Below are positions 2,413-55,525 of a stretch of 64,000 nucleotides of DNA, piece by piece. Each line of letters begins with the position of its first letter. Positions within the stretch are counted from its first letter, which is position 1. This stretch comes from Naegleria gruberi (Eukaryota), in assembly GCA_000004985.1 (NCBI GenBank), contig GG738922.1. One strand, written 5' to 3'. The position numbers were made by a program, and so were the translations under genes. The notes under the pieces were generated by a model. It had not been told where the DNA came from and made no database searches. It saw only the letters and a program-made list of their open reading frames with translations.

Positions 2413-2891
2413 ATTTATTTATTATTATTATTATAATGATGATGATGATGTTTGTTTGAATGTAATGTTGTTATTACTATTAAATATAATACTAGGCTTG
2501 TTATTATTATGTTGATGAAAAAGGCTTGTTGTTATTGTGATGGTGATGATGAAGGTTGGTTCTCGACAAAATTTATTCCAAAAATGCAAAATTTTAATGT
2601 TTTTAAAAAAATTAGCAAAAACATTGTGAAACTAAATGAATGGAATTTAAATTGTTAATTTAAACAAATTGATATTATAATAGTAATTTGATAATGTAAT
2701 GTTAGGATGAAACTATAGTCAACAATATTTTTGACAGTAATAACATGAACAATATATTTAGCCTTCATGTACTTAAAGTTCATGAACAATTTATCCTATC
2801 AATTGAAAAAAAGGATATTAATAATTCACAACATTAAAAAATACATCATCATCATTAACCCATATATTCTCATAATAACAATCACAATAAC

Positions 2892-4541
2892 ATGATGTGC
2901 AACAATTATAATTCAACTTCATCATCATCATCTTGTAAACAAGAACTACAAGAACAAATACAAATACCCAATGATATATGTTATGAAATATTATGTTATT
3001 TAAATTCACAACAAATTATTAAAAGTTGTTTATTAATTTCCAAACAATGGTTAAATGTAATTCTTGAAAGAATTAAAAATTTACAATTTTCATTTTTTAA
3101 AAGAGATGATTCTCCATTTTGGTTTTTAAATAGACAATTATATACTTTTAAATTTAATAACTTTAATAGTTTATTATTTAATAATATATCCTCATTGACT
3201 ATATATGGTAATGAACAATATAATTTATTTTTACCATTATTAAAATATTTTAAAAATTTAAAAATATTAAATGTTAATTGTAATCAATTAAGAGATGAAG
3301 GTACTAAAATTTTAGTTAGTGAAATAGATCAATTAACATGTTTACATTTTTCAAATAATTTTATTACTATAGAAGGAATTAAATATTTAACAAGAATGAA
3401 AAATTTAACATTTTTATCATTAGCATCAAATGCAAATAATTTAACATTAGATTCATTTAAAATATTAAGTGAAAATATGTTAAATTTAAAAATATTAAAT
3501 TTATCTGATAATTATTTATGTCAAGAAGAAGTATTTTACCAAATTAGTAAAATGATAAATATTACTAATTTAGATTTAAGTAGAAATTCTATAAAAGATT
3601 GTGGTATTAAATATATAAGTGAAATGAATGAATTAATATTTTTAAATATAACTAATTGTGAAATTAAAGAAGGTTCAAAATATTTAATCAAATTAAGAAA
3701 ATTAAAAAATTTAATAATTGAACAAAATTGTATTGGAGATGACGGTATTAAATTAATTTCTAACAATTTAAAACAATTAACAAATTTAAATATATATTAT
3801 ACTAATATTACTATAAATGGTGTTAAATATATTTGTAATGAATTAAAAGAATTAAAAGAATTAGATATTAGTAATAATAAAATTGGATTTGAAAGTTTAT
3901 TAGAAATTTCAAAATTAAAAAATTTAACAAGTCTTTCAATTAATTCTATTATTAATAATAATAATAATATTTATAATAATAATAATATTGATTGTAATAA
4001 TAATATTGAAAATATTAAATATATAAGTGAAATGAAACAATTAACATATTTAGATATATCATTTAATGATATAGGTGATGATTATATTAAATTTCTAAAT
4101 AATTTAACAAATTTAACACATCTCTCTATAGCACGTAATAATTTAACACATGAAGGTGTGAAATTTTTAAGTGAAAATATTTTTAAAAATTTAACACATC
4201 TCTCAATTGGATATAATTTAATTGGTATTGAAGGTGTTAAATTAATTACTAATAGTAGTATTGAAAATATGAAATGTTTATATATTAGTAAATCAGGAAT
4301 TGATGATGAAGGTGCTAAATATATTAGTAAATTAACAAATTTAAATAGACTTTTAATTGATGGTAATTATATTACTGAAATTGGTGCTAAATATATTGGT
4401 CAATTGAGTGAATTAACACATCTTAATATTAGTGAAAATTTTATTAAAAATGAAGGAGTTTCTTATTTGAGTAATCTTTGTAAATTAAATACTATTGATA
4501 TTAGAAGAAATGGATTGAGAAAGGAGAAGAAGAATAAATAA
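2892..4541 (+). CDS. F-box-like / leucine-rich-repeat protein (RNI-type LRRs), 549 aa
   Basis: N-terminus IPNDICYEILCYLNSQQIIKSCLLISKQWLNVIL is F-box-like. It is followed by more than 15 LRRs with L..L.L..N.I.D.G motifs typical of ribonuclease-inhibitor-like repeats. ATG at 2892. Confidence 0.8.
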   Translation: MMCNNYNSTSSSSSCKQELQEQIQIPNDICYEILCYLNSQQIIKSCLLISKQWLNVILERIKNLQFSFFKRDDSPFWFLNRQLYTFKFNNFNSLLFNNISSLTIYGNEQYNLFLPLLKYFKNLKILNVNCNQLRDEGTKILVSEIDQLTCLHFSNNFITIEGIKYLTRMKNLTFLSLASNANNLTLDSFKILSENMLNLKILNLSDNYLCQEEVFYQISKMINITNLDLSRNSIKDCGIKYISEMNELIFLNITNCEIKEGSKYLIKLRKLKNLIIEQNCIGDDGIKLISNNLKQLTNLNIYYTNITINGVKYICNELKELKELDISNNKIGFESLLEISKLKNLTSLSINSIINNNNNIYNNNNIDCNNNIENIKYISEMKQLTYLDISFNDIGDDYIKFLNNLTNLTHLSIARNNLTHEGVKFLSENIFKNLTHLSIGYNLIGIEGVKLITNSSIENMKCLYISKSGIDDEGAKYISKLTNLNRLLIDGNYITEIGAKYIGQLSELTHLNISENFIKNEGVSYLSNLCKLNTIDIRRNGLRKEKKNK

Positions 4542-7147: not shown

Positions 7148-7308
7148 TTTATTTGTTAAGGTTTATTGTAGGTAATAAAATACACAGACTTTGTTAGCCT
7201 GTGACTAATTGTAGCCTTGTAAAATCACAGCCTTGATTGAAGGATGAATGTTCTTGTGAATGATGGAAATTATTGCAATCAGTGCCATCCATCAATTCTA
7301 AAAAAAAA

Positions 7309-10300
7309 ATGAGTATTAATAATAGTATTGTTACTACACCCACTAAATCATCAGCATCATCACCAACTGATGGTACATCATTAACACCATCTCCATCATC
7401 ATTATCAACACCTCGGAATAATGTTAGTAGTAGTAGTATTACAACACCATCATCTACAACATCATCAACTTTATCAACTCCATCCACTCCATCTTCATCT
7501 TCTAGAATGACAACAATAGTTTCATCAGCTCCTATTATTAAAAAACTACCAAAACATTTACAAGATACCTTAAAATCTGGAACTAATATATCATCACTCT
7601 CTGATTGTATTAAAGAATTAATAGAAAATGCACTTGATGCACAAGCCACTAATATTGAAATTCAATTACAGGGTAAAGAATGTATCATTATTAAAGATAA
7701 TGGTCATGGTATTCATCAGGATAATTTTGAAACTCTATGTAAACGTTATTATACTCATAAATTTATGAATCATTTTAATACTTTTAATGATAATGATAAA
7801 AATGTAAATAATACCACTGATAATTTAAATAATAATGAATCATCATCTAATAATCATTCTCATAATAATAATGAAAATAATAATTATTACTATGGATATA
7901 AAGGAGAAGCATTAAATAGTATATGTAATTTAAGTAAACAAGTACATATTAAAACTAAATATGGAGATGAATCTGAATTAGGAACATATTTAATATATGA
8001 TACAAGAGGTGAAATTGTATCTAAAACATTAATTAGAATGAATAGAGGTACAATAATAACAATTCAAGATTTATTTTCAACCATTCCAGTTAGAAAGAAA
8101 TGTTTTGTTAATCAATTTGATTCACAATTTACAGATTTAAAAGAAATGTTAAAACAATTAACTTTAATACATTTTAATATTAGATTTACTATTAAGGAAG
8201 GTGAAAAAATATCATTTATTAAAAATGGAAATATTAAAAATTTAAAACAATCATTAAATACTATATTTGGAATACCTAATTTATATGATCATTTATATTT
8301 ATATTCAAATATAATATTAAATGAAGAAAATGAAAATAATATATTTTTAAATAATTTAAATTTATTTAATAATGAATTTTTATTACAAATTCATGTTCCA
8401 AATTATTCAAGTATTGTAAAATCAAATCAAATTGATTCAAATGAAAAGGAAATTAACAAATTTTTTACCACAACTAAACCTTTTATTTATGTTAATAATA
8501 GAATGATTACTAAATATGAAGAAATTCAAAAAACAATGAAAAATATTTTTTCAAATTTTNNNNNNNNNNNNNNNNNNNNNNNNNNNNNNNNNNNNNNNNN
8601 NNNNNNNNNNNNNNNNNNNNNNNNNNNNNNNNNNNNNNNNNNNNNNNNNNNNNNNNNNNNNNNNNNNNNNNNNNNNNNNNNNNNNNNNNNNNNNNNNNNN
8701 NNNNNNNNNNNNNNNNNNNNNNNNNNNNNNNNNNNNNNNNNNNNNNNNNNNNNNNNNNNNNNNNNNNNNNNNNNNNNNNNNNNNNNNNNNNNNNNNNNNN
8801 NNNNNNNNNNNNNNNNNNNNNNNNNNNNNNNNNNNNNNNNNNNNNNNNNNNNNNNNNNNNNNNNNNNNNNNNNNTAATGATTATTCTGATCAAGTTATTG
8901 ATAATCAATTAAATAATACAAGTTTAATTTCTAATAATAATAATACAAGTAAATTAATTTCTAATAATACAAGTTTAATTTCTAATAATAGTAGTAGTAG
9001 TATTATTACACAATCATCACCTTCTTCTTCTATTATGAATAATAGCAATAATAATAATGAAAGTGGTAATCATTATACATCTAATTATAGAACACCATCA
9101 CCTCAATCTAAAAGCCTTATTACCACTCTTCATAATAGTAATCATTCTAATAATACAACAACACCATCACCACCTATATTTAATAAGAGAAGTGTTATTG
9201 TAAATAATAGTGGTGGTAGTAGTGGAAGTGGTAGTGGTGGTTATAGATCTACTATTAGTGGAGGTAGTAATAGTACATCTAATTATAGTACTAATAATAA
9301 TAATAATAATAGTAGTAGAGGTAGACATATAGAATTAGATGATTCATTATTGGATGCTATGGATGATTTAATAGGTGTACCTATTTTACCAAAAAATAAT
9401 AATAATAATTCAACAATAGATTCATCTATTAATAATAATATTACTAATAATAATGGAAATAAATCTAATAATAATAATATGAATTTAAGTGATGATGAAG
9501 ATACAATAATTAAAACAGGTTTAAAAAATACATCTAACAAACAAATATTAATAACTAATAATAATAATAGCAATGATAATAATAGTACTATTAAAACAAT
9601 AGTACAACCCATTGATATAAATAAATATAAAAGTACAACACCTAATAATTCTAAAAAAAGAAAAACAATTCAAACTAAATTAACATTAGATTCATCTCAA
9701 CAACAACAACAACAATATAAATATAAAAATATAGAAATTGAAAATATTAATGAAGAATTAATATTTAAAAAACGTAAAATTTATTCAAATAATGAAAAGA
9801 AAAATTTAAAATTTGATAATGAAAATTATAAAATTAGTAAAAATGATATATTTACAAATATAGAAATTATAGGAGAATTAGAAAATAAAATAGGAATAAT
9901 ATATCATTTAAAATATTTTAAAATATATTATATTAATTTAAATATAATTAAAAGTGATTGTATTTTTAATAATTTAATGAATACATATTCATTTAAAGAT
10001 TCAATTATACCTTTACAACAACCAATTAATTTATTATTATGTAAAAATGAATTATCAAATAAGAATTTAAAATCAATTTGTGTTAAACCTGAATATCAAA
10101 ATATTTTTGAAATGAATGGTTTTAAAATTGAATTTGAAAAACAACCTTTACCAAATGAACCTACTAGAAAGAAAATTACAAAATTAAATTTAATTGGAAT
10201 TATTAATAATAATTCTTTTGGAACAAGAGAACATTATAATTATGGTTTACAAGATTTTATTGAAATTTTACAAAAAATTGAAACTTTTGAAAAGGATTTA

Positions 10301-14930: not shown

Positions 14931-14943
14931 ATAAAAAAGTAGA
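14931..14943 (-). terminator. Pol III oligo-T terminator downstream of the tRNA
   Basis: TTTTTT run 1-8 nt after the discriminator base on the tRNA strand. Confidence 0.5.
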
Positions 14944-15032
14944 AGGCGACTGAGGGAATTGAACCCTCGACCCTCAGTTATCTCAGCATTACTGCCTACA
15001 AGACTGATGCACTGCCACTGTGCTAAGCCGCC
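14944..15032 (-). tRNA. tRNA gene, anticodon UGU (Thr) with a putative 17-nt intron 3' of position 37
   Basis: The reverse complement folds as GGCGGCU/AGUCGCC acceptor stem (one G-U), GCAC/GUGC D-stem, UCAGU/ACUGA anticodon stem with loop CUUGUA[intron GGCAGUAAUGCUGAGAU]A, variable loop GGGUC, and T-arm GAGGG-UUCAAUU-CCCUC. A T6 run (TCTACTTTTTTAT) follows immediately and serves as a Pol III terminator. Confidence 0.6.
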
Positions 15033-15154
15033 TTACGATTATGATTTTTAAAAATACAATACTGTAATATTCCTGTGCGTTAAGTAATGTGTCACCAAAA
15101 TAATAACACAATTAATATTAATATTATTATGGCGCCAAAAAGAAATAAAAATAC

Positions 15155-42286: not shown

Positions 42287-45200
42287 ATGTCTAAAGAGAA
42301 CGATGACTTGGACTTTCTTGCCGATGACTATGATCAACCATCACAGTCCCCAAGAACAACATCAACCCGTCGATTATCTACAAGACCTCGTGTCGTCCTC
42401 AAGAAAACCTCCAATTCATCATCAAATTCGACAAGTGGCAGAAGAGACAGCATCAACTCTAATGATGAATTAACTTTAGATCAAATACAATCACCACCTT
42501 CTTCTTCATCATCAGCTACTACTTCACCACAATCAATTTCCTCTCCTCCAGAGCCAACATCAATCAACCCAACAAGAAGTGGCAGCAGTAAAATAATAAT
42601 TGGCTCCAAGATACAAAAACCAATCAATAACAATAATTCAACAACAACAAACAAACCAAGTCTCATTACTGAAAGCTCCAGTAAAGTTCAAACTAAAAAG
42701 TTTATGAGTAATTTATTGAAAAGTGTTCAGACCACACAAAATAATTCATCTCAACCTTCCTCTCCAACCAATGAATCTCAACAACAACAACAATTGAATG
42801 GATCTGGTGGAGTTGCTACTGCTACTACTGCCAATGCTAATAATTCCGAAGGTATTGTTATTGATGAAGCAGAAGAGAAGAGAAGAGATTTTGATGAATT
42901 GATGATGAAATCCTCAAAGAGACAACAACAACAATTATTCAGTGATAATGATAAGAAACAAATTACATTGGATAAACTTGAGAGTTTGATGCAAACATTG
43001 GATAGACATGATAGAGTGCCACTGTTGGATGAAAATATTAATATTGTTGATTTGTATAGTAGTGATCCATCTCAGATTGATGCAAAACAGGGAATTATCA
43101 AATCAAATCCTCCACTCTTTCAGAAACATGATCAACCATTAGATATTGACTTGTTTGAGGAGATTACAAGTTTCAGTACCATTCAGAGAAGATATCTTTC
43201 ACAAGATGAAATGGTTAAAGGTGATTTCAAGACAAGTCATGAATTCCAATTGAAACCAACTGTTGGAAATTTATCAAGTGCAGTTGATGAAGTGAGAGAA
43301 TTTGTAAAGAAAGAGAAGGAACGTCATCAAATCATGATGGGTGGTGAAGAAAAATCAACACAAAATGAATCTTCTTCATCTCTAACTGGTGGTGGTGTGC
43401 CTGGAGCCAGTTCTTCCTCATCTGATTTGAAATCAAATTTAGAAAAACAAGTTGAACATGAATCACATATGGAAAAAGCTAAGAAAATTTTCAGAAAGAT
43501 TGAATATCGACATGTTTTCAAAGATTTAGTTAATAGATTGGTTATGGAAAAGATTGGTATTCCTACAATTTTACGTGTCAATTCAAAATTTATTGCAGTT
43601 GGTACATCGAATGGTCTCATTGTTTTATATCACAGAAAGACTGAAAATCGTTTGGCAATTTTGGGTTCCATTCAAAATGAAGAAATTACAAATTTGAGTG
43701 GTGGAAAAGTTGTTAGACCTATTCAAGTTACTGCTCTCGATTTTGGTTCTAAAATGACATTACCTTATGAAGAGTTTAGTGCCAAATCAGAACAAGATTT
43801 ATTAATGTTATATTATAGAATTTCAACTGATCAAGATGATTATACTGTTAATGCTACAACTGGAGGTGATAAGCAACAAGATGAAGAAAATATTGAAGTA
43901 TTGAGTCAAACTTCACGTGTACTTGTCAGTGGTCATTCAGATGGTTCTATTAACATTTGGAATTTATCAACATTTAAACCTGTCAAACCACTTAAGGGAT
44001 ATTTCACAAAACCTGTTCAGAAAATTGTAAATTTACACAAAACTAGCAAGCAATATAATGCCATTGAATTTTTGGCAGTTGATACAAGTGGTAGAATGAA
44101 ACTTTTCAATGTGAGAAAGATTATGTTTGCTTACTATGTTGATGTTCAACCTATTTTATGGGCAAACATTCCAAAAGAAATGACTTCCTTCAAGTCAACC
44201 AATAATTTAGAAAGTGAAAATGGTGAATCCAATTCTTCTCAATTAATTGCTAGTAGTATGACTCCAGAACAACAATTAAAGATGAAAGAATTAGAAAAGA
44301 GACAACAACAAGAAAAGATTCTTTCCACCTTTTCAGAATTCCAAGTATTACCAAAATCAGAGGGTAGACATCCATTGGATAGATTTGTTTTGGCTGCTGT
44401 TGCTACTGAAAGTGAAGTTACCATTCACTCTGTTAAGCCATCAAGTAGACAAATTGCAACACTTTACAATAATAGTGTTTTAGATATGGCTAGTGGTGCT
44501 GCTTCATCTGCAGGTTCATTCATGAGAAAGAAGATTACTCCAAAGATTGCATGGAAAGCAAGTCAAATGGTTGATGGTGATCATAGAGGATTAACTGTTT
44601 CTCTCAATGATCAAACTAATCCTTATTTGGCAGTTGCTTGGGGCAACAGAATTGCATTCTATCATGTTGAAGTTCAACAACCTTCATCCTTCTTTAATTT
44701 CATGTTTGGAGGTAATTCTAACAGTGCTTCAACCAATGGTCAAGCTAACATCAATGGAACACAAAATGGTTCTTCTCAAAATGGTAATTCAAATGCCAAT
44801 ACACCAAATGGATCATCAAATATGAATGTTAATATGGGAGGAAGTGATTTGCCAAATATTTACTTTGCTTCTGAAATGTTTGTTCCATTCAATATTGAAC
44901 ATATTCACTGGTTGACTGACGATTTATTCATCGTATTGGACTCCAAACAAAGCAAGATGCTATTGATTGATAGAAAATTGGAAAGCTCAACCAATTGGAT
45001 AGAAGAAGTTAATTGTAAAGATTTAATGTTGGACTATATCTCTGATCCAATGATGAACATTCCAAATAATTTGAAAAAGAAATATGGTTTACAATATGGT
45101 GGTGGTTTTACAAGAGGTAGCTTTGATGTTTCTGCATTCCAATATATTGAAATCTTACGTCACTCTTCAATTACTCCACAAAGCTTGAAGCATTCCATGT

Positions 45201-48200
45201 ATAATTCTTCAGATAGTGATGATACTGTCAGTATTCCAAGTACAACTCACTCATTTGCATCCGAAATGTATAGAGCTAGCTATGGAGGTGGTGGCATTGT
45301 TACTGTCAAACATCGTAGTCCAACTATTTACATGTTGGGCGCTTCCGAGTTGAGAGCTATGCGTTGCTTGTCTTGGGATGAAAGAGTTGTTGCTCTTCAA
45401 ACTATTGGAGAGTATGAAGAAGCTTTGAATATGTCTGTTGAAATGTTCAACGATCCAACCTCTATTGGTGCTCTTGTTGGGCTTCCAAACAAGGAAGAAA
45501 TTCAAAGACATCAAGCTGTTAGTGCACTCATTTCTTCTATCCTTGTTGATTACAGAGATACAAAATTGCATCAACTTCAACTTGATAATGGTTTAACTCA
45601 TCAAAAAGTGGAAAGTTTAGTTCAAGTTGCCAGAAATTGTTTACAAAGAGCAATTGAAATTAACGATATTGAATTGATTGAAGGAACTTTCATGTCTTTT
45701 GAACATTATGGTTGCGAACACATTTTCTTCCAATTGTTGGTTGAAGAGCTTATTTTGAACGGTGCCCTATCAAGAATGATGACAATTGACTCTAAGAAAG
45801 CTTCATATGACTTTATTCAATCTCAATTCATGAAGATCAAGGATTTGTACACATCAGATGCTGATCCAGAGAAGGGTGAAAAGGGGTTGATTGATCTTTC
45901 AAGATATATCAAGTATCACAACAATATTGATAACGAAATAGCATACGATTCCAGTTCAATTCATCCACTTTCTCCAAAGGTCAGATTCGAAAGACTCGAA
46001 AGTATTATTCTCAATCTGGATATTTCCAAATTGCAAATTGAATATGAAATTTTCTTGGAATTGAATGAAAAGTGCAAGAGATACAACTTGTACAGAATGC
46101 ATATTTATTCAAACTGTGTATTGAACTCTGATTTCATCACACCAGTTAGAGATTATTTGGAAGACATTACAATCTCTGATTTGTCTACTGTTGAAACAAA
46201 GGAAAAGGCAGATGCAATTTTGGAATACTTTAAGAATATCGTCACAAAGGGAACAATCTTTACTGATGCTTATCACATTACCGATGTTGAAGTATTGAAG
46301 AAGGTTAAACGTTTGATTGTTGACTTTTTGTTTGAACAAACAAGAGTTGTCAGAATGTCGTCTAACTCACAAGAAAAACACAAGAATAATGGAATTGCTA
46401 TGTTGAATTTGGAAAAATTGATCAAGTACAATCCAAAGGAAACATTTGATGTATTGAAATTATACTTTGAAGAAATTGCTGTCGAAGGATCAACTGTTAC
46501 CTCACCATTTTATACCACATTCCCAAGACCAATCAAGAACCCACTTACAAAGGAAGAAAAGGGAAGTATTTTGGAAGAATTTATTGTTACATCCTTTGCT
46601 GATTGTGTCAATGAGGGAACTGGTTCCAACATGTCACTTCGTAAATGGGTTCCAAAGTTGAACCGTGAAGAATTGATTGAGGCAATGAAGAGTTACATTC
46701 TTGATCCTCCACAAGGTGAATTAGATATTGAAATTGATAGTCCAACCTTCACATTGAGAGAAAAGAAATACTTGTACGAATTTTTGGGAGAAATGATTGC
46801 CAGAAATATTTTGGCAGAAGACAAGGGTCAAATTAAGAGAATTTACACTCACTTGTGTCATGACAATGTATTTACCTCTGATGAAACCAAAGAGTTGCTG
46901 AAACAATTCAAGGAGCACGAAAAGGCATCCACTGAAACAAAGAAGGGTAAATCACTCCACTTGACAGAACAAGCAAGACAAGAAAGTGTTGAAAGAATTA
47001 TGAAGCAAACATCATATCTCAATGAGAGAAAGGAATATTTGATCAAAGAATATGATTTCAAACGTCACAGACAAAATATTTTGATGAAAATTCTTGAAAA
47101 ACTTGAAAGTTCCAATGAGCAAACCATCTCAACTATTCTTGTTCGTTTGATTGACTATGCCCAAGAAAATAACTGTTATCAAGCTGCTGTATATTTGAAT
47201 AGAAAGAAGAAAGATTACAAAGCTGTTATTAAGAATTATATTGATGATCTCAAATTGAAGAAAGCAATCGGTCATAGTCAACTTGACACACCTGTATTCA
47301 GTTATATTTCTGAATTGGCAAATGATTCTGAAGTTATTACTATTAGTATTCATGATGCTATTTTGGACCATTTCCTTGATTTGATGAAAGCTGACAGTGA
47401 AGAAATGACATTACTCATTGTGAAATACTTCCCAACTCTCCATCCTCAAGTTTTGAATACTCTCATCACTTCAAGCATCAAACACATTGAAGATGAAAGA
47501 CTCTTATTCAATTACTTGTCAAAGATTATTAATATTTATGAAGGAAATAATGATTTGATTGACGTTAAGGCCAACACTAGTTCTAGTACAATGTCTCAAT
47601 TCTTTACAAGCATGACAAGAACAAAGATTGATGTTGATATGGAATTACAATATCAATACATTAGATTATTATGTAAATTTGAACCACACAAAGTTTGTGA
47701 TTGGTTACAAACTCATCAATTCCCAGGTGAGAAGGCAGAAGAAATTTTAGAATATTGTAGAAATATTCCAGATGCTGTTAGTTTCCTCCTTGAAAGAAAT
47801 GGTGAAGTTATGGAAGCTCTTAACATTGTTTTGAAGAATATTTCAAGAGAAACAAGTATTTTGGAAGAAACTCTTTCGAATATTTCTAAAAAGTTTGATC
47901 CAGAAAATATTAGATTCTCCAAATATAGACATGTTAAAGATATCAAAGAGAGAACAAGACTTCAAAAGGGTGTTACTTATACAGATGCTGAAGAACAAGC
48001 AGAACAAAAGGGTATCAAATTCTTTAATGTAGAACGTATTCTTGGTTTGGTTGACTTGGAAGAAATTCCACTTGATGTCTATTTGGAAGCAAGAAGAAAA
48101 GTCTTAGATGGACGTGGATTACTTCCAAATACTTCTAATGTAGATAAGGATGATGCTAGTGTACACTCAGTAAATCCTCTCCATTATGGTTTGGATGAGG

Positions 48201-49624
48201 AATTCATTGGACGTGGATCAATCTTCCTCCAAGTTGAAGATTTGCCAGAATCTAAAAAGATTCGTAAGGAATTAGCTGTTGCTATTTCAATGTGTAAGAG
48301 AAATACTACAAGAAAGACAGTTGATGAAAAGCAAGTCAAGCAATTGTGGTTCAAATTATTGGATCAATTCAATCTTCCATTCAGTGAATATTTCAAATCT
48401 TACAAACTTGGTATTGAAGATTCATCAGTTTCAATGAAGAGAGATGATGAAGGTGGTGAAGGAGAAAGACTTCAAGCCAATGAAGAAACCGATGTTGAAC
48501 AATTGAAATCCAAGATTGAAAAAACCAGAGAAGCAAGAAAAACAAAGGAAAATGAATTGCTTGAAAAGGAAAAGGAGCTCTCTGAATGTGTCGATGAAGA
48601 AGAAAGAAAGGGACTTCAAAAGACGGTTGAAAATTCAAAGAAATATATTGCTCAGCAGATTAAGAAAGAAAAAACAATTCAAAAGCAAATTCAAGACATT
48701 CGTGATAAGAGCAAGATGGAAAAGGAGAAATCTAATCAAATGCACAATTTAGCCAAGTTGTGGCTCCAATTATTGGAATTCAAATTATTGAGAGTTGTTG
48801 TCTTGTCAGCTATTGGCAGTTTACCAATTCCTGAAATTTTGAAGAAATTAACCAAGGAAAATGCCAAATCAGATTTCTCAATGTACAGACAAATTTTACT
48901 TCATTTACTTGACAAGTACAAGTATGATTTGAAATTGTTACAAAATGCCAACAATGTGGTTGAGGAAGACACTTTCACATTGAGCAAGAAATTCACTGAC
49001 AGATTAATGAGAGGATTATGTCCAACCGTTCCAAAATGTATGCTCACTGATACATTACTTACACCTGAAGTAGATGACAATGAAGATGAAGAAAAGACCA
49101 ACTCAAAGAAGGGAAGAAGAGAAAAGAAGTTTGATGTTATCAGATTATTTGATACTGGATATGGTTATAGATTATCTGCTCTTGGTAATGTGACACGTTG
49201 TCCAACTACAACCACCTCTGTAAAGAAGAAGAAATTCGAAGTTGAAAAGACAAAATCAATTACAGAAGTTAAAAAGATCACTAACGAATTGTCAAGACTT
49301 TCACAAGTTGAATCTCAAGTCAAGAAGAAGCCAACTATGAAACTTTACAGAACTGCTCTCAAGGAATCTCAAATGGTTCGTTCTTCTACAAAGAAAGCTG
49401 GATCACTCGATTTGGTGTTCAGTGGACTTGACAGACCATTACTTCCTCCTATTGCCGAAGAGTTGACCAATATGGTTCCTAATTTGTTTACTACCACAAC
49501 ATCTAGAGATATTTCTGCTTCCAATGTTGAGACTAATGTTGAAAATTCAATCGTTTTTGAAGGAAGATATGTTTCACAAGAACAAATTATTGACTCTTTA
49601 CTTGACAATGCCATTCAATTCTAA
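42287..49624 (+). CDS. Very large (2445 aa) single-exon WD40 / alpha-solenoid / coiled-coil protein, possibly vacuolar-sorting (Vps8/Vps41-like) or Rav1-like
   Basis: Uninterrupted 7.3-kb ORF. WD40 signatures include LVSGHSDGSINIWNL, followed by long helical-repeat regions and a C-terminal coiled coil (KSKIEKTREARKTKENELLEKEKEL). No C-terminal RING. Confidence 0.8.
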   Translation: MSKENDDLDFLADDYDQPSQSPRTTSTRRLSTRPRVVLKKTSNSSSNSTSGRRDSINSNDELTLDQIQSPPSSSSSATTSPQSISSPPEPTSINPTRSGSSKIIIGSKIQKPINNNNSTTTNKPSLITESSSKVQTKKFMSNLLKSVQTTQNNSSQPSSPTNESQQQQQLNGSGGVATATTANANNSEGIVIDEAEEKRRDFDELMMKSSKRQQQQLFSDNDKKQITLDKLESLMQTLDRHDRVPLLDENINIVDLYSSDPSQIDAKQGIIKSNPPLFQKHDQPLDIDLFEEITSFSTIQRRYLSQDEMVKGDFKTSHEFQLKPTVGNLSSAVDEVREFVKKEKERHQIMMGGEEKSTQNESSSSLTGGGVPGASSSSSDLKSNLEKQVEHESHMEKAKKIFRKIEYRHVFKDLVNRLVMEKIGIPTILRVNSKFIAVGTSNGLIVLYHRKTENRLAILGSIQNEEITNLSGGKVVRPIQVTALDFGSKMTLPYEEFSAKSEQDLLMLYYRISTDQDDYTVNATTGGDKQQDEENIEVLSQTSRVLVSGHSDGSINIWNLSTFKPVKPLKGYFTKPVQKIVNLHKTSKQYNAIEFLAVDTSGRMKLFNVRKIMFAYYVDVQPILWANIPKEMTSFKSTNNLESENGESNSSQLIASSMTPEQQLKMKELEKRQQQEKILSTFSEFQVLPKSEGRHPLDRFVLAAVATESEVTIHSVKPSSRQIATLYNNSVLDMASGAASSAGSFMRKKITPKIAWKASQMVDGDHRGLTVSLNDQTNPYLAVAWGNRIAFYHVEVQQPSSFFNFMFGGNSNSASTNGQANINGTQNGSSQNGNSNANTPNGSSNMNVNMGGSDLPNIYFASEMFVPFNIEHIHWLTDDLFIVLDSKQSKMLLIDRKLESSTNWIEEVNCKDLMLDYISDPMMNIPNNLKKKYGLQYGGGFTRGSFDVSAFQYIEILRHSSITPQSLKHSMYNSSDSDDTVSIPSTTHSFASEMYRASYGGGGIVTVKHRSPTIYMLGASELRAMRCLSWDERVVALQTIGEYEEALNMSVEMFNDPTSIGALVGLPNKEEIQRHQAVSALISSILVDYRDTKLHQLQLDNGLTHQKVESLVQVARNCLQRAIEINDIELIEGTFMSFEHYGCEHIFFQLLVEELILNGALSRMMTIDSKKASYDFIQSQFMKIKDLYTSDADPEKGEKGLIDLSRYIKYHNNIDNEIAYDSSSIHPLSPKVRFERLESIILNLDISKLQIEYEIFLELNEKCKRYNLYRMHIYSNCVLNSDFITPVRDYLEDITISDLSTVETKEKADAILEYFKNIVTKGTIFTDAYHITDVEVLKKVKRLIVDFLFEQTRVVRMSSNSQEKHKNNGIAMLNLEKLIKYNPKETFDVLKLYFEEIAVEGSTVTSPFYTTFPRPIKNPLTKEEKGSILEEFIVTSFADCVNEGTGSNMSLRKWVPKLNREELIEAMKSYILDPPQGELDIEIDSPTFTLREKKYLYEFLGEMIARNILAEDKGQIKRIYTHLCHDNVFTSDETKELLKQFKEHEKASTETKKGKSLHLTEQARQESVERIMKQTSYLNERKEYLIKEYDFKRHRQNILMKILEKLESSNEQTISTILVRLIDYAQENNCYQAAVYLNRKKKDYKAVIKNYIDDLKLKKAIGHSQLDTPVFSYISELANDSEVITISIHDAILDHFLDLMKADSEEMTLLIVKYFPTLHPQVLNTLITSSIKHIEDERLLFNYLSKIINIYEGNNDLIDVKANTSSSTMSQFFTSMTRTKIDVDMELQYQYIRLLCKFEPHKVCDWLQTHQFPGEKAEEILEYCRNIPDAVSFLLERNGEVMEALNIVLKNISRETSILEETLSNISKKFDPENIRFSKYRHVKDIKERTRLQKGVTYTDAEEQAEQKGIKFFNVERILGLVDLEEIPLDVYLEARRKVLDGRGLLPNTSNVDKDDASVHSVNPLHYGLDEEFIGRGSIFLQVEDLPESKKIRKELAVAISMCKRNTTRKTVDEKQVKQLWFKLLDQFNLPFSEYFKSYKLGIEDSSVSMKRDDEGGEGERLQANEETDVEQLKSKIEKTREARKTKENELLEKEKELSECVDEEERKGLQKTVENSKKYIAQQIKKEKTIQKQIQDIRDKSKMEKEKSNQMHNLAKLWLQLLEFKLLRVVVLSAIGSLPIPEILKKLTKENAKSDFSMYRQILLHLLDKYKYDLKLLQNANNVVEEDTFTLSKKFTDRLMRGLCPTVPKCMLTDTLLTPEVDDNEDEEKTNSKKGRREKKFDVIRLFDTGYGYRLSALGNVTRCPTTTTSVKKKKFEVEKTKSITEVKKITNELSRLSQVESQVKKKPTMKLYRTALKESQMVRSSTKKAGSLDLVFSGLDRPLLPPIAEELTNMVPNLFTTTTSRDISASNVETNVENSIVFEGRYVSQEQIIDSLLDNAIQF

Positions 49625-49661: not shown

Positions 49662-52039
49662 TTAATTTTTAATAGAAGTAATGAGTTTTGTAAGAGTTTT
49701 GTTTGCAAATCTGAAAAGTGATAGAGCAAATGGATGTAAGAATTCATTCTCATTGTCGTTAACTGGAATTTTCAAAAGTCCACTCTCGGCATGGTAATAT
49801 TGTTTTGTTCTATCAGTAATTCTTTTCATTAATTCTTCTGCATCAACCCAAGAAAGATCAACCTTTTCAGTAAAAGGAACAGAGCTATCAATTATTGATC
49901 TTTCTTGAATTTCTTCGCTGGTAAGATACTCGAGCTCAGTAATAAATAAATTATACTTTCCATTTTCGAAATAATATCCCTCGGAGGTTGACAATTTGTC
50001 ATAAATGTTGCCAAAAGCAGCCTTCGTTTCTTCGTAAAATTCTCTTGCAGCTGTTTCTGCAGAGTTGGTATCAGCCTTTTCCCTCTTTCCACCGAATTCT
50101 GACCATGTAAACATTTGCTTGGCAATCTTGTATGGACTCAAACCTTTCTCAAAATTGATATTAGGATTTACATCGCCCTTTCCTCCTCTATTTTCTTTTC
50201 CAAGAAGGAAATAAACTTTTCCTTGGTGGATAGAATATGCAATAACACCTGCTGACTTATAATTTTGTTCAACTACAGGATCTCTTTCAATAATATCAGT
50301 ACTTTCTTGATTGGCTGCAATATCATAATGTGGTGAGTAGACTGGTTGAGTTGGATAGAATGAAGGATAATAACTGTAATAATTTGGCATTGGTGGATAA
50401 TATCCTGCAGCTGGAGCATAAACATTATGTTCTCCTGGTATAACTTCAACATAGTATGGGTAATAATAGACAGGTGGTTCTGGTTGATATGGATATCCAT
50501 AAACTGGTTGTGGAACATTCTCATGTTCAACATAGTTTTCTTCATTTTGATAGTTGGAACCTTGTTTAAACATTTTTGTCAAATTTCTTTGACGGGATTG
50601 TAAAATCTGCTTGATAAATTCATCTGAGGAATTAGCATTATCTATTCTCTCTTTATGATCGCAATCTCTACATTGAATAGTGAAAAATGTAAAATCATCT
50701 AAACGTTCAATTAATTGTTCTTCTTGATATTCTGTCAACTCATCAACATTATTATCATCTTTGAATTCTTGTAATATTCTTTGTTGTTGATCATGATCCA
50801 CAACTATTGGATTGGTTGTCTTGATCGACTTACAACTTGGACATACCATGTAATTTGAAATATATGATTGTAAAACTTGATCAATTAGTTTTGACATTTG
50901 ATTTTCTTCGTTCATAGAGATGGTTCCTCCATTCAATGTTTTAACTTTTACATCTTTTTCTTCATATTTTCCATTATTTTCTGTGAGTTCCTTTTTAACT
51001 TCAGAAATATGTTCATGAAGAATATATCCAATTTCATCATTTACATCAAAAAAGCATGTCTTTTCTGTTTTGAATCCGATATATTTCATAAGATCTTTGA
51101 AATTCAAATAAATATAAAATTATTATGAAACAACTTACATTGAGCTCTTCTATTCATTAAATTGGCAATTTCTGCCATATTAATAATTGATGTCTTTTTC
51201 ATTGTCAACTCTTGTTCAGCCTGACCCTCGGAATCTAAACACTTGTATTTTACAACTTGTGAAAAGTTTACAGTAGAAACTTTTGACCTAATCTTCTTTA
51301 ATAATTGTCTATGTGTTGGAGATTTAGACTCCTGATTATTAACATGAATTTCCTTGTTTGTAGATAATGTACCCTTCTTCTTTCTATCGACGAAATTTTG
51401 TTGTTGTTGACCAGCAGTACTTCCTCTCAATGATCCAGCCTTTGAATTGGTACCACCCACTATTGTAGTAGTAGAATTGTATTGATTATTCTTTGAGGTA
51501 GAAGATGATGATGATGAAACAGAGGAGGAACGTGATGTTGATTGTTGCTTATTTTTTTTGGAGGCTTGTTTTTGATTGTTATTGTTGTTGTTGTTGGTGT
51601 GATGATTGGAAGAAGAAGAGGCTGATGCTGATGAATGGTTATTTGATGATTTGTTATTGTTGTTGTTATTACCATTTGAAGGATGGTTAGATCCCTTTGA
51701 ATGATGAGCAGCATGATTAGTATTGTTGCCATTGTTATTACTTCTTGTGGATAATGGAAGTGAAGAGTTATTGATTGAATCATTGTGTGGTTGTTGTTGT
51801 TGATCGGCAGCAGTAACACTTCCATTATTGTGATGATTGTGCATCGCTATTGATGAACCATTGTTGTTGCTATTATTGTTAACACTGGAAGTAGCAGTCG
51901 TAGTGGTTGTGGTAGATAATGATGAAGAGGAGGACTTGTTTTTTCTCTTACGTCTATTCTTCTTTGAAGGACTTGTTGCTCCTCCATTGGTAGAAGAATT
52001 AGAATCAATACTTGTAGTAGATGTTGATGATTGTAACAT
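49662..52039 (-). CDS. Nudix hydrolase, Dcp2-like (candidate mRNA-decapping enzyme) with long N-terminal Ser/Asn-rich extension; join(51139..52039,49662..51094)
   Basis: ORFs 51104..52039 and 49662..51107 join in frame through donor GTAAGT at 51138 and acceptor caaAG at 51095 (42-nt intron, phase 1). The downstream part carries the Nudix box GGKREKADTNSAETAAREFYEETKAAFG. A Tyr/Pro-rich low-complexity insert is also present. Confidence 0.6.
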
Positions 52040-52354: not shown

Positions 52355-55300
52355 TTACTTTTTCTTTCTCTTCTTCTTGTCGTTATGTTTCTTCTTGTTT
52401 GATGCTGATGATGAGGTAGTAGTAGTTGATGGACGTATTGGAAAAGTATATGGTATCTGACCATTGATTTTCCACATGAGAGGAATATAGGGCATTATTT
52501 GGGTTTCTGTTATTGCTCCATGCTTCTCATAGTCTGAGTGAAGATCATAGTAGAATTTCTGTGGTAGCCCTCTCGGAATGTGGTCAGGAGTTGATTTCCT
52601 GTATTCAACAAGCAAATGAACCAAGGACTCATTAGGCATCTTTTGAATTAAAAATCTGTAGTCCTTCAAGTTGAACTTTTGGAAGAGGGTGATCAATTTA
52701 GTCACTTCTGTTAGAATTCCATAAACCATTTGTACAGATAATTGAGGTTGGAAACCAATATTGGACCCTCCAAGCACAGCCAGTGAGGATAAGTTTGAGG
52801 TTAACATATTGGACCAATATCTTTCATTTTCTTCTTCTTCATCTTCATTGCTTGGAAGAATGTCTTTGATTCTTTTGAATTCAGTTCTGCAAACTCTGTT
52901 CTGGGCTACATCGACACGAGTGAGTACAGCTGCAGAAGCTGGCCTCATGAAAACAACAGACCACCACTTGGCAAGTTCACTCTGTGTAGATAACTCTAAA
53001 CCTTTTTCAGTTTGATATTCCAATTTGGTCATTAGCTTGATAGCAGTTGGCCTATCCGTTTTTACATCCATATTAGCTCCATCGAGTTTGGTTCTGATCA
53101 ACAATTTCAAATTTGCAAGTGTAAACAAATTGTAAGTTATTGGCTCTCCATCTCTGTGTAAGAGTTCATATTGTGAATAACTATCATTCTCATTGTATTC
53201 AGCCTTAGAAATGAGTGGATTGCAAGGTATGTGTATGAGTGGTTCCTTCAATGCAAGTGTCTTAATTGTGTATTTGTAATAAATTTGATTGTTATCTCTG
53301 AGAGTCCAGGCCTTTTTAATCATGGGCTTGTCAATAAATACTGTGAACTGTGATTCATCTGATTTTGGCTTGGCAATGACAGGTAAGCACCACTCCTCAG
53401 AAAATGTTGGGCCTAGTGTGTTGATCATTGCAGTGAGAGCACTGCTAGCACAAACGAAATCAATATCTGTGCATTGAGGAAGGATGGATTGTAAAATGAT
53501 AGGATCCTCGCTTACATTTGGAAGAATACGATGATGATAAAGGTTGGCTGTTGGTGTACTCTTCTTTTTTGATTCCTCAAATGGATTATATACATTTTCT
53601 GTAGGTGGAACAATTAATTCTTGTGTTTGATCTTCTAAATTATTTGGATTTAAAGATGGATCATTAACTTGGTAAACATTTGTTCCTATTGGGAATTTAG
53701 GAAGCTTTACAGGCTTGGAAGGTGTTTGTGTCTCAGATTCCTCATTGTTATCTTCATCAGCTGAGGCAACATCTTCATCTTGTGCCTGGTATAATATTTG
53801 ATTTCTGTGGAATTGGAAATATTTATCTGTGGTCTGATAAATGAGTTTTGAAAATCGAAGAATAGGGTCAGCAAATGAATTTCCAAGGGCTTGCTTGGTT
53901 TGTTGGAGTTGAGCAATACCAAGTGTTTGCCAAAGTTCAAAATGTCTTGGTAGGGCTCCAGTATTTTCCAAACTGGTTGCATTTGTGGGTAAAATTCTTT
54001 CAAATTTTCTCTTCTTTTTCATCTTGTCCACTTGATCAGAAATATATGGATCAATAAAAAAGTATCTAGTTTGTCTATTATTCCAAGCATCGTCAAATAG
54101 AGCTTTTCTAAAGGCAGCTTGCTCTTCCTCAACAACTTTCTTTAATTTGAAAAAGTATGCAGATGGAGGTGAAACCTGTTTTGAAAGGGCATTCTGATTT
54201 TGGAATAATTTAAATTGTTTGAGTCCCTTCATGTAAATATCTTGGTCATTCTCATCCAAACTTGATACTTTGCCTAGGTGAAAGAGTGGATTCTTTTCAG
54301 GTTGAAGAGGTTTCTTCTTTTGCTTCTTCTCTTTCTTGTTCTTTTGTGATTTGGATGAATTAGAATTTGGCTGTTGTGATTGGGGTTGTTGAGCAGGAGT
54401 ATAGCTATCAATAATAGGATTAGATTCTTCGGCACTATTTTCTTTCTTCTTTTCCTTTTTCTTTCGTTTCCTTTTCTTTGAATTACTTTCTTCCACTTTC
54501 TCTGCAACAATAGGTTGAATAGTTTGCTGAGTTTTTAGATTGAAAACAAGAGGTGCTGGAGGAGGTTTCGTCCTTGCAAGAAGTGGAATAAGTGGATTAT
54601 ACTCAATAATTTGATTCATATCTTTTTCTTCTACTGGTTTAGTTTCAGTAATAATTGTTTGAAATACCGGTTGGCTTGAGATAACCTCCTTATTTGGAGT
54701 ATTCTGTTCTGTAACTATTTTCAAGGGAACAGATTCTCTTTCAGTTGGCTCTAATGGTGGAATAATTCTAGTTTGCTCTGAAAGAGTTTCAATTCTATTC
54801 TCCTGATTATTAGATACTATTGGTGTTAGTTCATCTTGAACTGAATCAAGCCCTCCGATTTCATAATTGTCATCTATCATGTATAAATTCTCTGGTTCCT
54901 CCTCACTATCGGAATCTTGTGATGAAAAATCAACTCTTTCTTGTTGTTTAATATTAGTAATATCACTCCTTTCCTCATCAGTTATTAAAGTATGAACAAG
55001 TTCTTGTTCCTGAACGATTTCCTTCTTCTTTAATAAATCTTTAGAATATTCGAAAAGCCTTTCCAATTGTTGCTTTCTATCTGGTTTTAAAGAAGGCTCT
55101 ATTGAGAAATGTTTCAACAATTTACTTTCCATGTTTGGTGTTACATCTTCAATATAGTTATGCTCCTGACTATAATTCATCCAATGAAATAAATATTTAG
55201 AATTTGATGCACTCGAAGCTGTTGAATAATTTCTTGTTAATCTTTTAATTGGTTCCACATTCGGTAAATCAGACAATGATTTTAAATAATCAAAGTCAAC

Positions 55301-55525
55301 CTCATAATTTTCAACATTTTCCAATTTTTCCTCGTTACTATTAGAATTAAATCCGTTAATTGTTCTTCTAATACTTTCGCTTGGTATTTCCAAATTTGCT
55401 GGCAAAGGAGAGAGTACTCTTCTTCCTTCATTCATTAGTTTAAATTCACTAGAAATTTCCTCTAAATTAATTATCATCTCTCCATTATCTTCCGTTCTAT
55501 GATTTGCTTCATCCTGACTCATCAT
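52355..55525 (-). CDS. Large hypothetical protein, 1056 aa (basic KKRK-rich middle, conserved-looking C-terminal half)
   Basis: Uninterrupted ORF with ATG at 55525. Contains a polybasic NLS-like stretch. No confidently recognised domain. Confidence 0.7.
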   Translation of the reverse strand: MMSQDEANHRTEDNGEMIINLEEISSEFKLMNEGRRVLSPLPANLEIPSESIRRTINGFNSNSNEEKLENVENYEVDFDYLKSLSDLPNVEPIKRLTRNYSTASSASNSKYLFHWMNYSQEHNYIEDVTPNMESKLLKHFSIEPSLKPDRKQQLERLFEYSKDLLKKKEIVQEQELVHTLITDEERSDITNIKQQERVDFSSQDSDSEEEPENLYMIDDNYEIGGLDSVQDELTPIVSNNQENRIETLSEQTRIIPPLEPTERESVPLKIVTEQNTPNKEVISSQPVFQTIITETKPVEEKDMNQIIEYNPLIPLLARTKPPPAPLVFNLKTQQTIQPIVAEKVEESNSKKRKRKKKEKKKENSAEESNPIIDSYTPAQQPQSQQPNSNSSKSQKNKKEKKQKKKPLQPEKNPLFHLGKVSSLDENDQDIYMKGLKQFKLFQNQNALSKQVSPPSAYFFKLKKVVEEEQAAFRKALFDDAWNNRQTRYFFIDPYISDQVDKMKKKRKFERILPTNATSLENTGALPRHFELWQTLGIAQLQQTKQALGNSFADPILRFSKLIYQTTDKYFQFHRNQILYQAQDEDVASADEDNNEESETQTPSKPVKLPKFPIGTNVYQVNDPSLNPNNLEDQTQELIVPPTENVYNPFEESKKKSTPTANLYHHRILPNVSEDPIILQSILPQCTDIDFVCASSALTAMINTLGPTFSEEWCLPVIAKPKSDESQFTVFIDKPMIKKAWTLRDNNQIYYKYTIKTLALKEPLIHIPCNPLISKAEYNENDSYSQYELLHRDGEPITYNLFTLANLKLLIRTKLDGANMDVKTDRPTAIKLMTKLEYQTEKGLELSTQSELAKWWSVVFMRPASAAVLTRVDVAQNRVCRTEFKRIKDILPSNEDEEEENERYWSNMLTSNLSSLAVLGGSNIGFQPQLSVQMVYGILTEVTKLITLFQKFNLKDYRFLIQKMPNESLVHLLVEYRKSTPDHIPRGLPQKFYYDLHSDYEKHGAITETQIMPYIPLMWKINGQIPYTFPIRPSTTTTSSSASNKKKHNDKKKRKKK

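Follow-up and report, generated by a model that had tools for sequence, protein, structure and literature searches.

We found that positions 49662..52039 of the 64,000-nucleotide stretch of Naegleria gruberi DNA analysed here (the window; contig GG738922.1) hold, to judge from the sequence, one two-exon gene of a Naegleria-type heterolobosean. With high confidence we describe its 777-aa product as, in order, a disordered Ser/Asn-rich N-terminus, a domain resembling the N-terminal domain (NTD) of eIF5, a disordered Tyr/Pro-rich linker and a divergent Nudix hydrolase domain. Two known domains are combined here in a new, lineage-restricted architecture. Our best explanation as a whole, which adds to this architecture an inferred mechanism linking it to translation initiation, has in our estimate a probability of about 40%.

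The spliced gene and its surroundings

The gene is spread over two ORFs in different frames of the minus strand, 52039..51104 (311 aa) and 51107..49662 (481 aa). The preliminary description had joined them in frame through an intron, and this holds: excision of 51095..51138 fuses both ORFs into a CDS of 2334 nt, that is 777 aa and a stop codon. The boundaries it gave were right, the length of 42 nt was not, since the intron (minus-strand letters GTAAGTTGTTTCATAATAATTTTATATTTATTTGAATTTCAAAG) measures 44 nt. Exon 1 (51139..52039) starts at the ATG at 52039, which has a stop codon in the same frame 4 codons 5' of it, and covers residues 1-300 and the first base of codon 301; exon 2 (49662..51094) runs from the last two bases of codon 301 to residue 777, followed by the stop codon at 49662-49664. 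The predicted intron is spliceosomal and of phase 1 (GTAAGT...CAAAG), splitting Tyr301 between T and AT, and the predicted junction 51138/51095 reads CAAT followed by ATCTTATG. Without splicing, the reading frame ends 11 codons inside the intron. The G+C content of the window is 30.7%.

Across the junction the spliced product reads NRRAQ-Y-LMKYIGF, which aligns with NRPAPYIVKYFGF of yeast eIF5 and is uninterrupted in the annotated proteins of N. lovaniensis (P0001), N. fowleri (P0153, XP_044568536.1) and Willaertia magna (P0004). Three other genomes have a GTAAGT...AG intron at this very codon and in the same phase; it measures 98 nt in an N. fowleri-like contig (L001), 42 nt in a metagenomic contig (L002) and 37 nt in contig JAESGV010000087.1 of assembly GCA_016850925.1 (L003). 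The family member on the last of these (about 2700-3010) is a distant one, at 35% identity. Since the conserved motif is restored exactly and the position and phase of the intron recur in other genomes, we conclude that the predicted splice is real, well beyond chance. The very short length of 44 nt might speak for an artefact, either two separate genes or a frameshift error with no spliced gene. However, such an artefact would have to rebuild a conserved motif exactly, in the face of four genomes whose introns at this codon and phase differ in length and sequence and of full-length orthologues annotated at 784-794 aa, and we consider its probability negligible.

Two of the short introns, that of the window (51095-51138, 44 nt) and that of L002 (about 748-789, 42 nt), both contain TAATAAT some 20-25 nt 5' of the 3' AG, and the 98-nt intron of the N. 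fowleri-like contig contains a classical TACTAAC. These elements are possible branch sites.

On its 3' side the gene is convergent with a VPS8-like gene (42287-49624, plus strand, 2445 aa, with Pfam matches to the Vps8 TPR and beta-propeller), with 37 bp from stop codon to stop codon. A VPS8-like gene is convergent on the 3' end in the N. fowleri-like contig too, so that the synteny is kept. The upstream neighbour, separated from the start codon by 315 bp of intergenic DNA, is a 1056-aa ORF (52355-55525, minus strand) with a NARG2_C domain (PF10505, E 3.1e-13). Elsewhere in the window, the ORF listed at 7273-8877 is untrustworthy as listed because an assembly gap of 315 N (8560-8874) lies inside it, and ARAGORN places at 14942-15033 (minus strand) a tRNA-Thr(TGT) of 92 nt, which is long for a tRNA and may have an intron inside.

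Domains of the predicted protein

The eIF5-NTD-like domain covers residues 256-471 (50583..51274, minus strand, interrupted by the intron). Pfam PF01873, the eIF5/eIF2beta domain, matches it with E 6.7e-10 and 39.3 bits (cutoff 27), a score that reaches 48.7 bits among the relatives, all of which have the PF01873 and NUDIX pair. A profile of the N-terminal domain matches human and yeast eIF5-NTD as well as archaeal and eukaryotic IF2beta at E 1e-7 to 1e-5. An alpha/beta core followed by a C4 zinc ribbon is present, as in the PF01873 family, and the eIF5-NTD fold is supported by a predicted structure, the model being that of the N. lovaniensis orthologue and not of the window protein. The AlphaFold models of this domain and of the Nudix domain used alignments of 6-7 sequences each. 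The cysteines of the ribbon (C385-x2-C388 and C442-x2-C445; 50661..50843, minus strand) are invariant among the family members aligned. Between the two knuckles lies a helical insertion of about 40 residues, confined to the Naegleria/Willaertia clade, and a second insertion of about 35 residues precedes the ribbon helix.

The C-terminal domain of eIF2beta/aIF2beta belongs to the same Pfam family, and the zinc-ribbon half of the window-family domain has its best scores to aIF2beta and eIF2beta (E 1.4e-7 to 1.4e-5). We consider that the domain is, by its sequence, nearer eIF5 than eIF2beta, because the relatives retain an eIF5-specific N-terminal motif (QRFKPRLE, ARFRPKLE and HRIKRPRAV vs YRYKMPRL of eIF5). 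Compared with the eIF5 NTD (PDB 6FYX chain m, 2E9H, 2G2K), the window protein carries the two insertions and differs at residues of known function. The Arg15 finger of eIF5 is essential for GAP activity (PMC6298780). Its position is occupied by Lys264 in the window protein and by Lys in N. lovaniensis, N. fowleri and Willaertia; Arg is kept in Acrasis, in two environmental members (P0008 and P0010) and in L003, whose motif is HRIKRPRAV. Likewise, the Gly-rich beta-hairpin 1 of eIF5 (G27, R28, G29, N30, G31), which packs on the anticodon stem-loop of the initiator tRNA (PMC6298780), is aligned with Q/E/L/T/M in the window protein, and the hairpin loop varies in length, with a 19-residue insert at its tip in Willaertia. 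Unlike eIF5, the window protein has no Pfam match to a W2/HEAT domain (PF02020), and its C-terminus is the Nudix domain instead. The eIF5-mimics 5MP/BZW1/2 may serve as a conceptual analogue, in that one eIF5 domain is reused to influence initiation; this analogy comes from the literature, and the 5MPs copy the C-terminal W2 domain and not the NTD, and have no enzyme domain (PMC12776414).

The low-complexity N-terminus of the preliminary description was found again as residues 1-255 (51275..52039, minus strand; S 24%, N 19%, T 10%), of which residues 26-33, KKNRRKRK, form a basic cluster. Its sequence is poorly conserved, while its length and composition are alike in Naegleria and Willaertia; it is short in Acrasis and the environmental relatives. 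We compared composition across 26 of the 27 long ORFs of the window, one being left out. A 100-residue stretch with at least 50% S+N+T+Q occurs in 8 of the 25 other ORFs, and the N-terminal extension, at 70%, is the extreme. We therefore downgraded the idea of a special prion-like domain, S/N/T/Q-rich stretches being common in window genes.

The Tyr/Pro-rich insert was also correctly noted. This low-complexity linker (residues 472-578; 50262..50582, minus strand; Y 19%, P 16%) reaches 18 Y and 14 P per 60 residues, and its Tyr density is singular among the 26 ORFs, the next best having 9 per 60. An enrichment of 14-22 Tyr per 60 residues recurs in 9 of the 10 members examined, down to 35% identity, the linker of P0008 having 10. 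The linkers cannot be aligned with one another despite this common enrichment, and the composition looks as if it were under selection. We rejected a PPxY motif (PPVY at residue 507) as a WW-domain ligand: it is in 7 of 10 members, absent in 3, and chance alone should produce it where Y and P are so frequent. Immediately ahead of the Nudix domain, the linkers of P0008 and P0010 share a short motif, MYTS[DE][AS]LEK[EQ]VFEQ. Two other environmental members, P0009 and P0011, begin with a motif like this one; both probably have the same architecture, with gene models that are truncated.

Residues 579-777 (49665..50261, minus strand) constitute the divergent Nudix domain with a C-terminal helical extension. 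The Pfam NUDIX score (PF00293) is 21.6 bits against a cutoff of 21.1. The Nudix box GGKREKADTNSAETAAREFYEETKAAF (residues 635-661; 50013..50093, minus strand) has the form G636-x5-D642-x8-R651-E-F-Y-E-E-T-K-A. Against the consensus GX5EX7REUXEEXGU, the first Glu is replaced by Asp, one residue is added and the final Gly is replaced by Lys, and the RE(U)xEE core is kept. Calling the box canonical, as had been done, is thus justified for its REFYEE core and not for these departures or for a score so close to the cutoff. The R, E, E and E of RExxEE are invariant in a 32-sequence alignment, the motifs FGGK, LLGKE, GKY, EK and W.D are strongly conserved in the subfamily, and we regard the catalytic helix as intact in the predicted protein. 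In one relative, P0005, a catalytic Glu is replaced by His. The Nudix alpha/beta/alpha fold is present in the model of window residues 569-777 (pLDDT 84), which also predicts the C-terminal helical extension.

A six-member profile reached only the decapping enzyme g5R of African swine fever virus (ASFV) in the sequence search (E 0.11). The 32-member subfamily profile, run against the PDB, matched MTH1 at E 5.7e-5 over the Nudix-box region only (~48 residues), g5R at E 0.014 over about 95 residues and Dcp2 at E about 0.06 over 28 residues. MTH1/NUDT1, an oxidised purine nucleoside triphosphatase, is the best PDB match of this wider profile and has the pattern LLG...RG....W..FGGK....REL.EE in common with the subfamily, but it is a single-domain enzyme of 156 aa. 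[quoted passage not shown] An NCBIfam scan of the Nudix domain returned sub-threshold matches only (YtkD, 16 bits vs a cutoff of 154).

Relatives, giant viruses and Dcp2

The window protein belongs to a small family, as yet uncharacterised, with members in Naegleria fowleri, N. lovaniensis, Willaertia magna, Acrasis kona and some environmental eukaryote sequences. It is about 53% identical to the N. lovaniensis member over the part of the protein that is conserved. When 1.84 billion representatives were searched exhaustively with a profile, 2007 relatives were found at E<=1e-3, 9 of them at E<=1e-30. Four of the top-scoring long proteins beyond the queries (P0006, P0007, P0008, P0010), which originate from Acrasis kona and environmental samples, combine Nudix with PF01873, and cluster look-ups link the query proteins to N. 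fowleri. We encountered the fusion of an eIF5-like and a Nudix domain solely in amoebae of the Heterolobosea and in a few environmental sequences. The wider Nudix subfamily includes stand-alone uncharacterised proteins from protist transcriptomes, Dictyostelium purpureum (DICPUDRAFT_78457), metagenomes and giant viruses. Databases label the family as hypothetical, 'Nudix hydrolase domain-containing' or 'IF2/IF5 domain-containing', and searching the literature for the fusion or its locus tags turned up no paper. Among the metagenomic relatives we observed tandem double-Nudix proteins (P0013, P0020, P0030; also P0012, P0022, P0041), P0013 having a signal-peptide-like N-terminus.

Foldseek comparison with viral structures (BFVD) matched the whole Nudix domain to Nudix proteins of Clandestinovirus, Pithovirus, Marseillevirus and Pandoravirus (E 2.4e-11 to 1e-8, 20-23% identity). 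These viral proteins are stand-alone and uncharacterised. The subfamily profile also found the Clandestinovirus protein A0A8F8KUI1 in UniRef (E 2.3e-21). Since a scan of IMG/VR for relatives of the Nudix domain gave 34 pattern matches and none confirmed, the giant-virus link rests on the BFVD matches and this one UniRef match. In mimivirus, L375 is a proven decapping Nudix enzyme similar to g5R and Dcp2 (PMC8478210). Kago and Parrish describe a second Nudix protein, L534, as non-decapping-like and similar to Nudix proteins from giant viruses and protists that are themselves uncharacterised (PMC8478210), and the window subfamily may correspond to this group.

The preliminary description had placed a Dcp2-like region upstream of the Nudix domain. 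We found no such region: the stretch is an eIF5/eIF2beta-type domain with PF01873 and the eIF5-NTD fold, and Box A (PF05026), the Dcp1-binding regulatory domain that precedes the Nudix domain in Dcp2, the m7GpppN-mRNA hydrolase, had no match at E<=1 in the window protein or in five relatives. Nor is the Nudix domain specifically nearer Dcp2 than other subfamilies, its sequence affinity to Dcp2 being no better than to generic Nudix proteins. Furthermore, a survey of mRNA metabolism assigned N. gruberi XP_002682818.1 as Dcp2 (BLAST 1e-50) and XP_002672484.1 as Dcp1 (PMC5862402 S5 Table), and an E-value of 1e-50 does not fit the window gene because its similarity to Dcp2 is weak. Kramer likewise reports a detectable Naegleria DCP2 (PMC5491325), which a later paper calls merely 'possible' (PMC8220851). 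With a separate Dcp2 and a Dcp1 reported for N. gruberi, we therefore regard the window gene as an additional Nudix protein. That it could be a Dcp2 orthologue, the catalytic subunit of the Dcp1/Dcp2 complex with lineage-specific extensions, is highly improbable and effectively refuted by the missing Box A, the absence of Dcp2-specific Nudix affinity and the separate Dcp2 reported. Since Dcp1 and Dcp2 are both reported for N. gruberi, we also rejected a role as the principal decapping enzyme of a Dcp2-less lineage. The label 'Dcp2' is unfit for the annotation of this gene.

A possible link between initiation and hydrolysis

Both domains and the linker are co-conserved among the members, and we tentatively favour a mechanism in which the eIF5-derived module brings an active pyrophosphatase to initiating mRNPs, to act on the RNA 5' cap or a cap-related guanine nucleotide. 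The Nudix domain would be an active Mg-dependent pyrophosphatase. Because the Arg15 finger and the tRNA-contacting Gly-rich hairpin are lost, we propose that the eIF5-derived domain would act neither as a GAP nor as a start-codon monitor. It may rather be a targeting module for eIF2, the 40S subunit or RNA, by which the hydrolase would be delivered to initiating mRNPs, the RNA cap and cap-related guanine nucleotides being the likeliest substrates there. Through its conserved Tyr-rich linker the protein could self-associate in a multivalent way or partition into granules. It would work alongside the canonical Dcp1/Dcp2 reported for Naegleria and would not replace them.

The enzyme could instead be a nucleotide-pool Nudix hydrolase tethered to the GTPase eIF2. 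Its substrates would be guanine nucleotides, either free or factor-bound, such as oxidised or methylated GTP/GDP, or dinucleoside polyphosphates such as Np4N, and it would sanitise or modulate the initiation nucleotide with no cleavage of the RNA cap. The best PDB profile matches, to MTH1/NUDT1 with the pattern LLG.x.RG....W..FGGK, would fit this, but they span the surroundings of the Nudix box only. The closest named relative, Clandestinovirus A0A8F8KUI1, is labelled 'diadenosine tetraphosphate hydrolase', by annotation only. Moreover, eIF2gamma, the nucleotide-binding subunit, is the usual partner that the eIF5-NTD and eIF2beta folds have in common (PMC6298780), and the Arg-finger position is still Arg in several relatives; the eIF2 tether is nevertheless putative, and a long Tyr-rich linker with low-complexity tails is more typical of RNP/granule proteins than of housekeeping nucleotide hydrolases. 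We hold this alternative to be serious and, on balance, rather doubtful.

A different alternative dispenses with catalysis: as a decoy of the eIF5-NTD, the protein would compete for the binding sites of eIF5, eIF1 or eIF2beta and repress or remodel initiation, with the Nudix domain as a ligand sensor or scaffold. A non-GAP mimic predicts what is seen in Naegleria and Willaertia at the Arg15 position and in the tRNA-contact hairpin, which is not conserved, and mimics of the other eIF5 domain (5MP/BZW) exist (PMC12776414). The off-consensus Nudix box, barely above the Pfam cutoff, and the His of P0005 point in the same direction. Against it stands the pattern of an active enzyme: all 32 subfamily members aligned share the R, E, E and E in the catalytic helix, and the FGGK, LLGKE, GKY, EK and W.D motifs are strongly conserved. 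For this reason we consider the decoy quite unlikely.

To our knowledge, no proteins other than the core initiation factors eIF5 and eIF2beta/aIF2beta were known to have the eIF5-NTD/eIF2beta fold. Its stable fusion with an apparently active Nudix domain, which is shared by Naegleria, Willaertia, Acrasis and environmental relatives and in which the intron and the Tyr-rich linker are conserved, suggests a lineage-specific link from translation initiation to nucleotide or cap hydrolysis. Our searches found no animal counterpart of the architecture, and the protein is present in the pathogen Naegleria fowleri (XP_044568536.1). We see as unlikely, yet worth stating, the broader possibility that Heterolobosea evolved a third paralogue of the eIF5/eIF2beta family which would deliver a pyrophosphatase to initiation complexes for initiation-coupled decapping or quality control. 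If true, eIF2 or the 40S platform would be physically tied to hydrolysis of the mRNA cap or of the initiation nucleotide, with no counterpart in animals, fungi or plants. Discoba are unusual in their decapping, which is poorly understood, kinetoplastids having swapped Dcp2 for an ApaH-like phosphatase (PMC5491325, PMC8220851), and for this reason an extra, differently targeted Nudix protein in their sister lineage is a concrete candidate.
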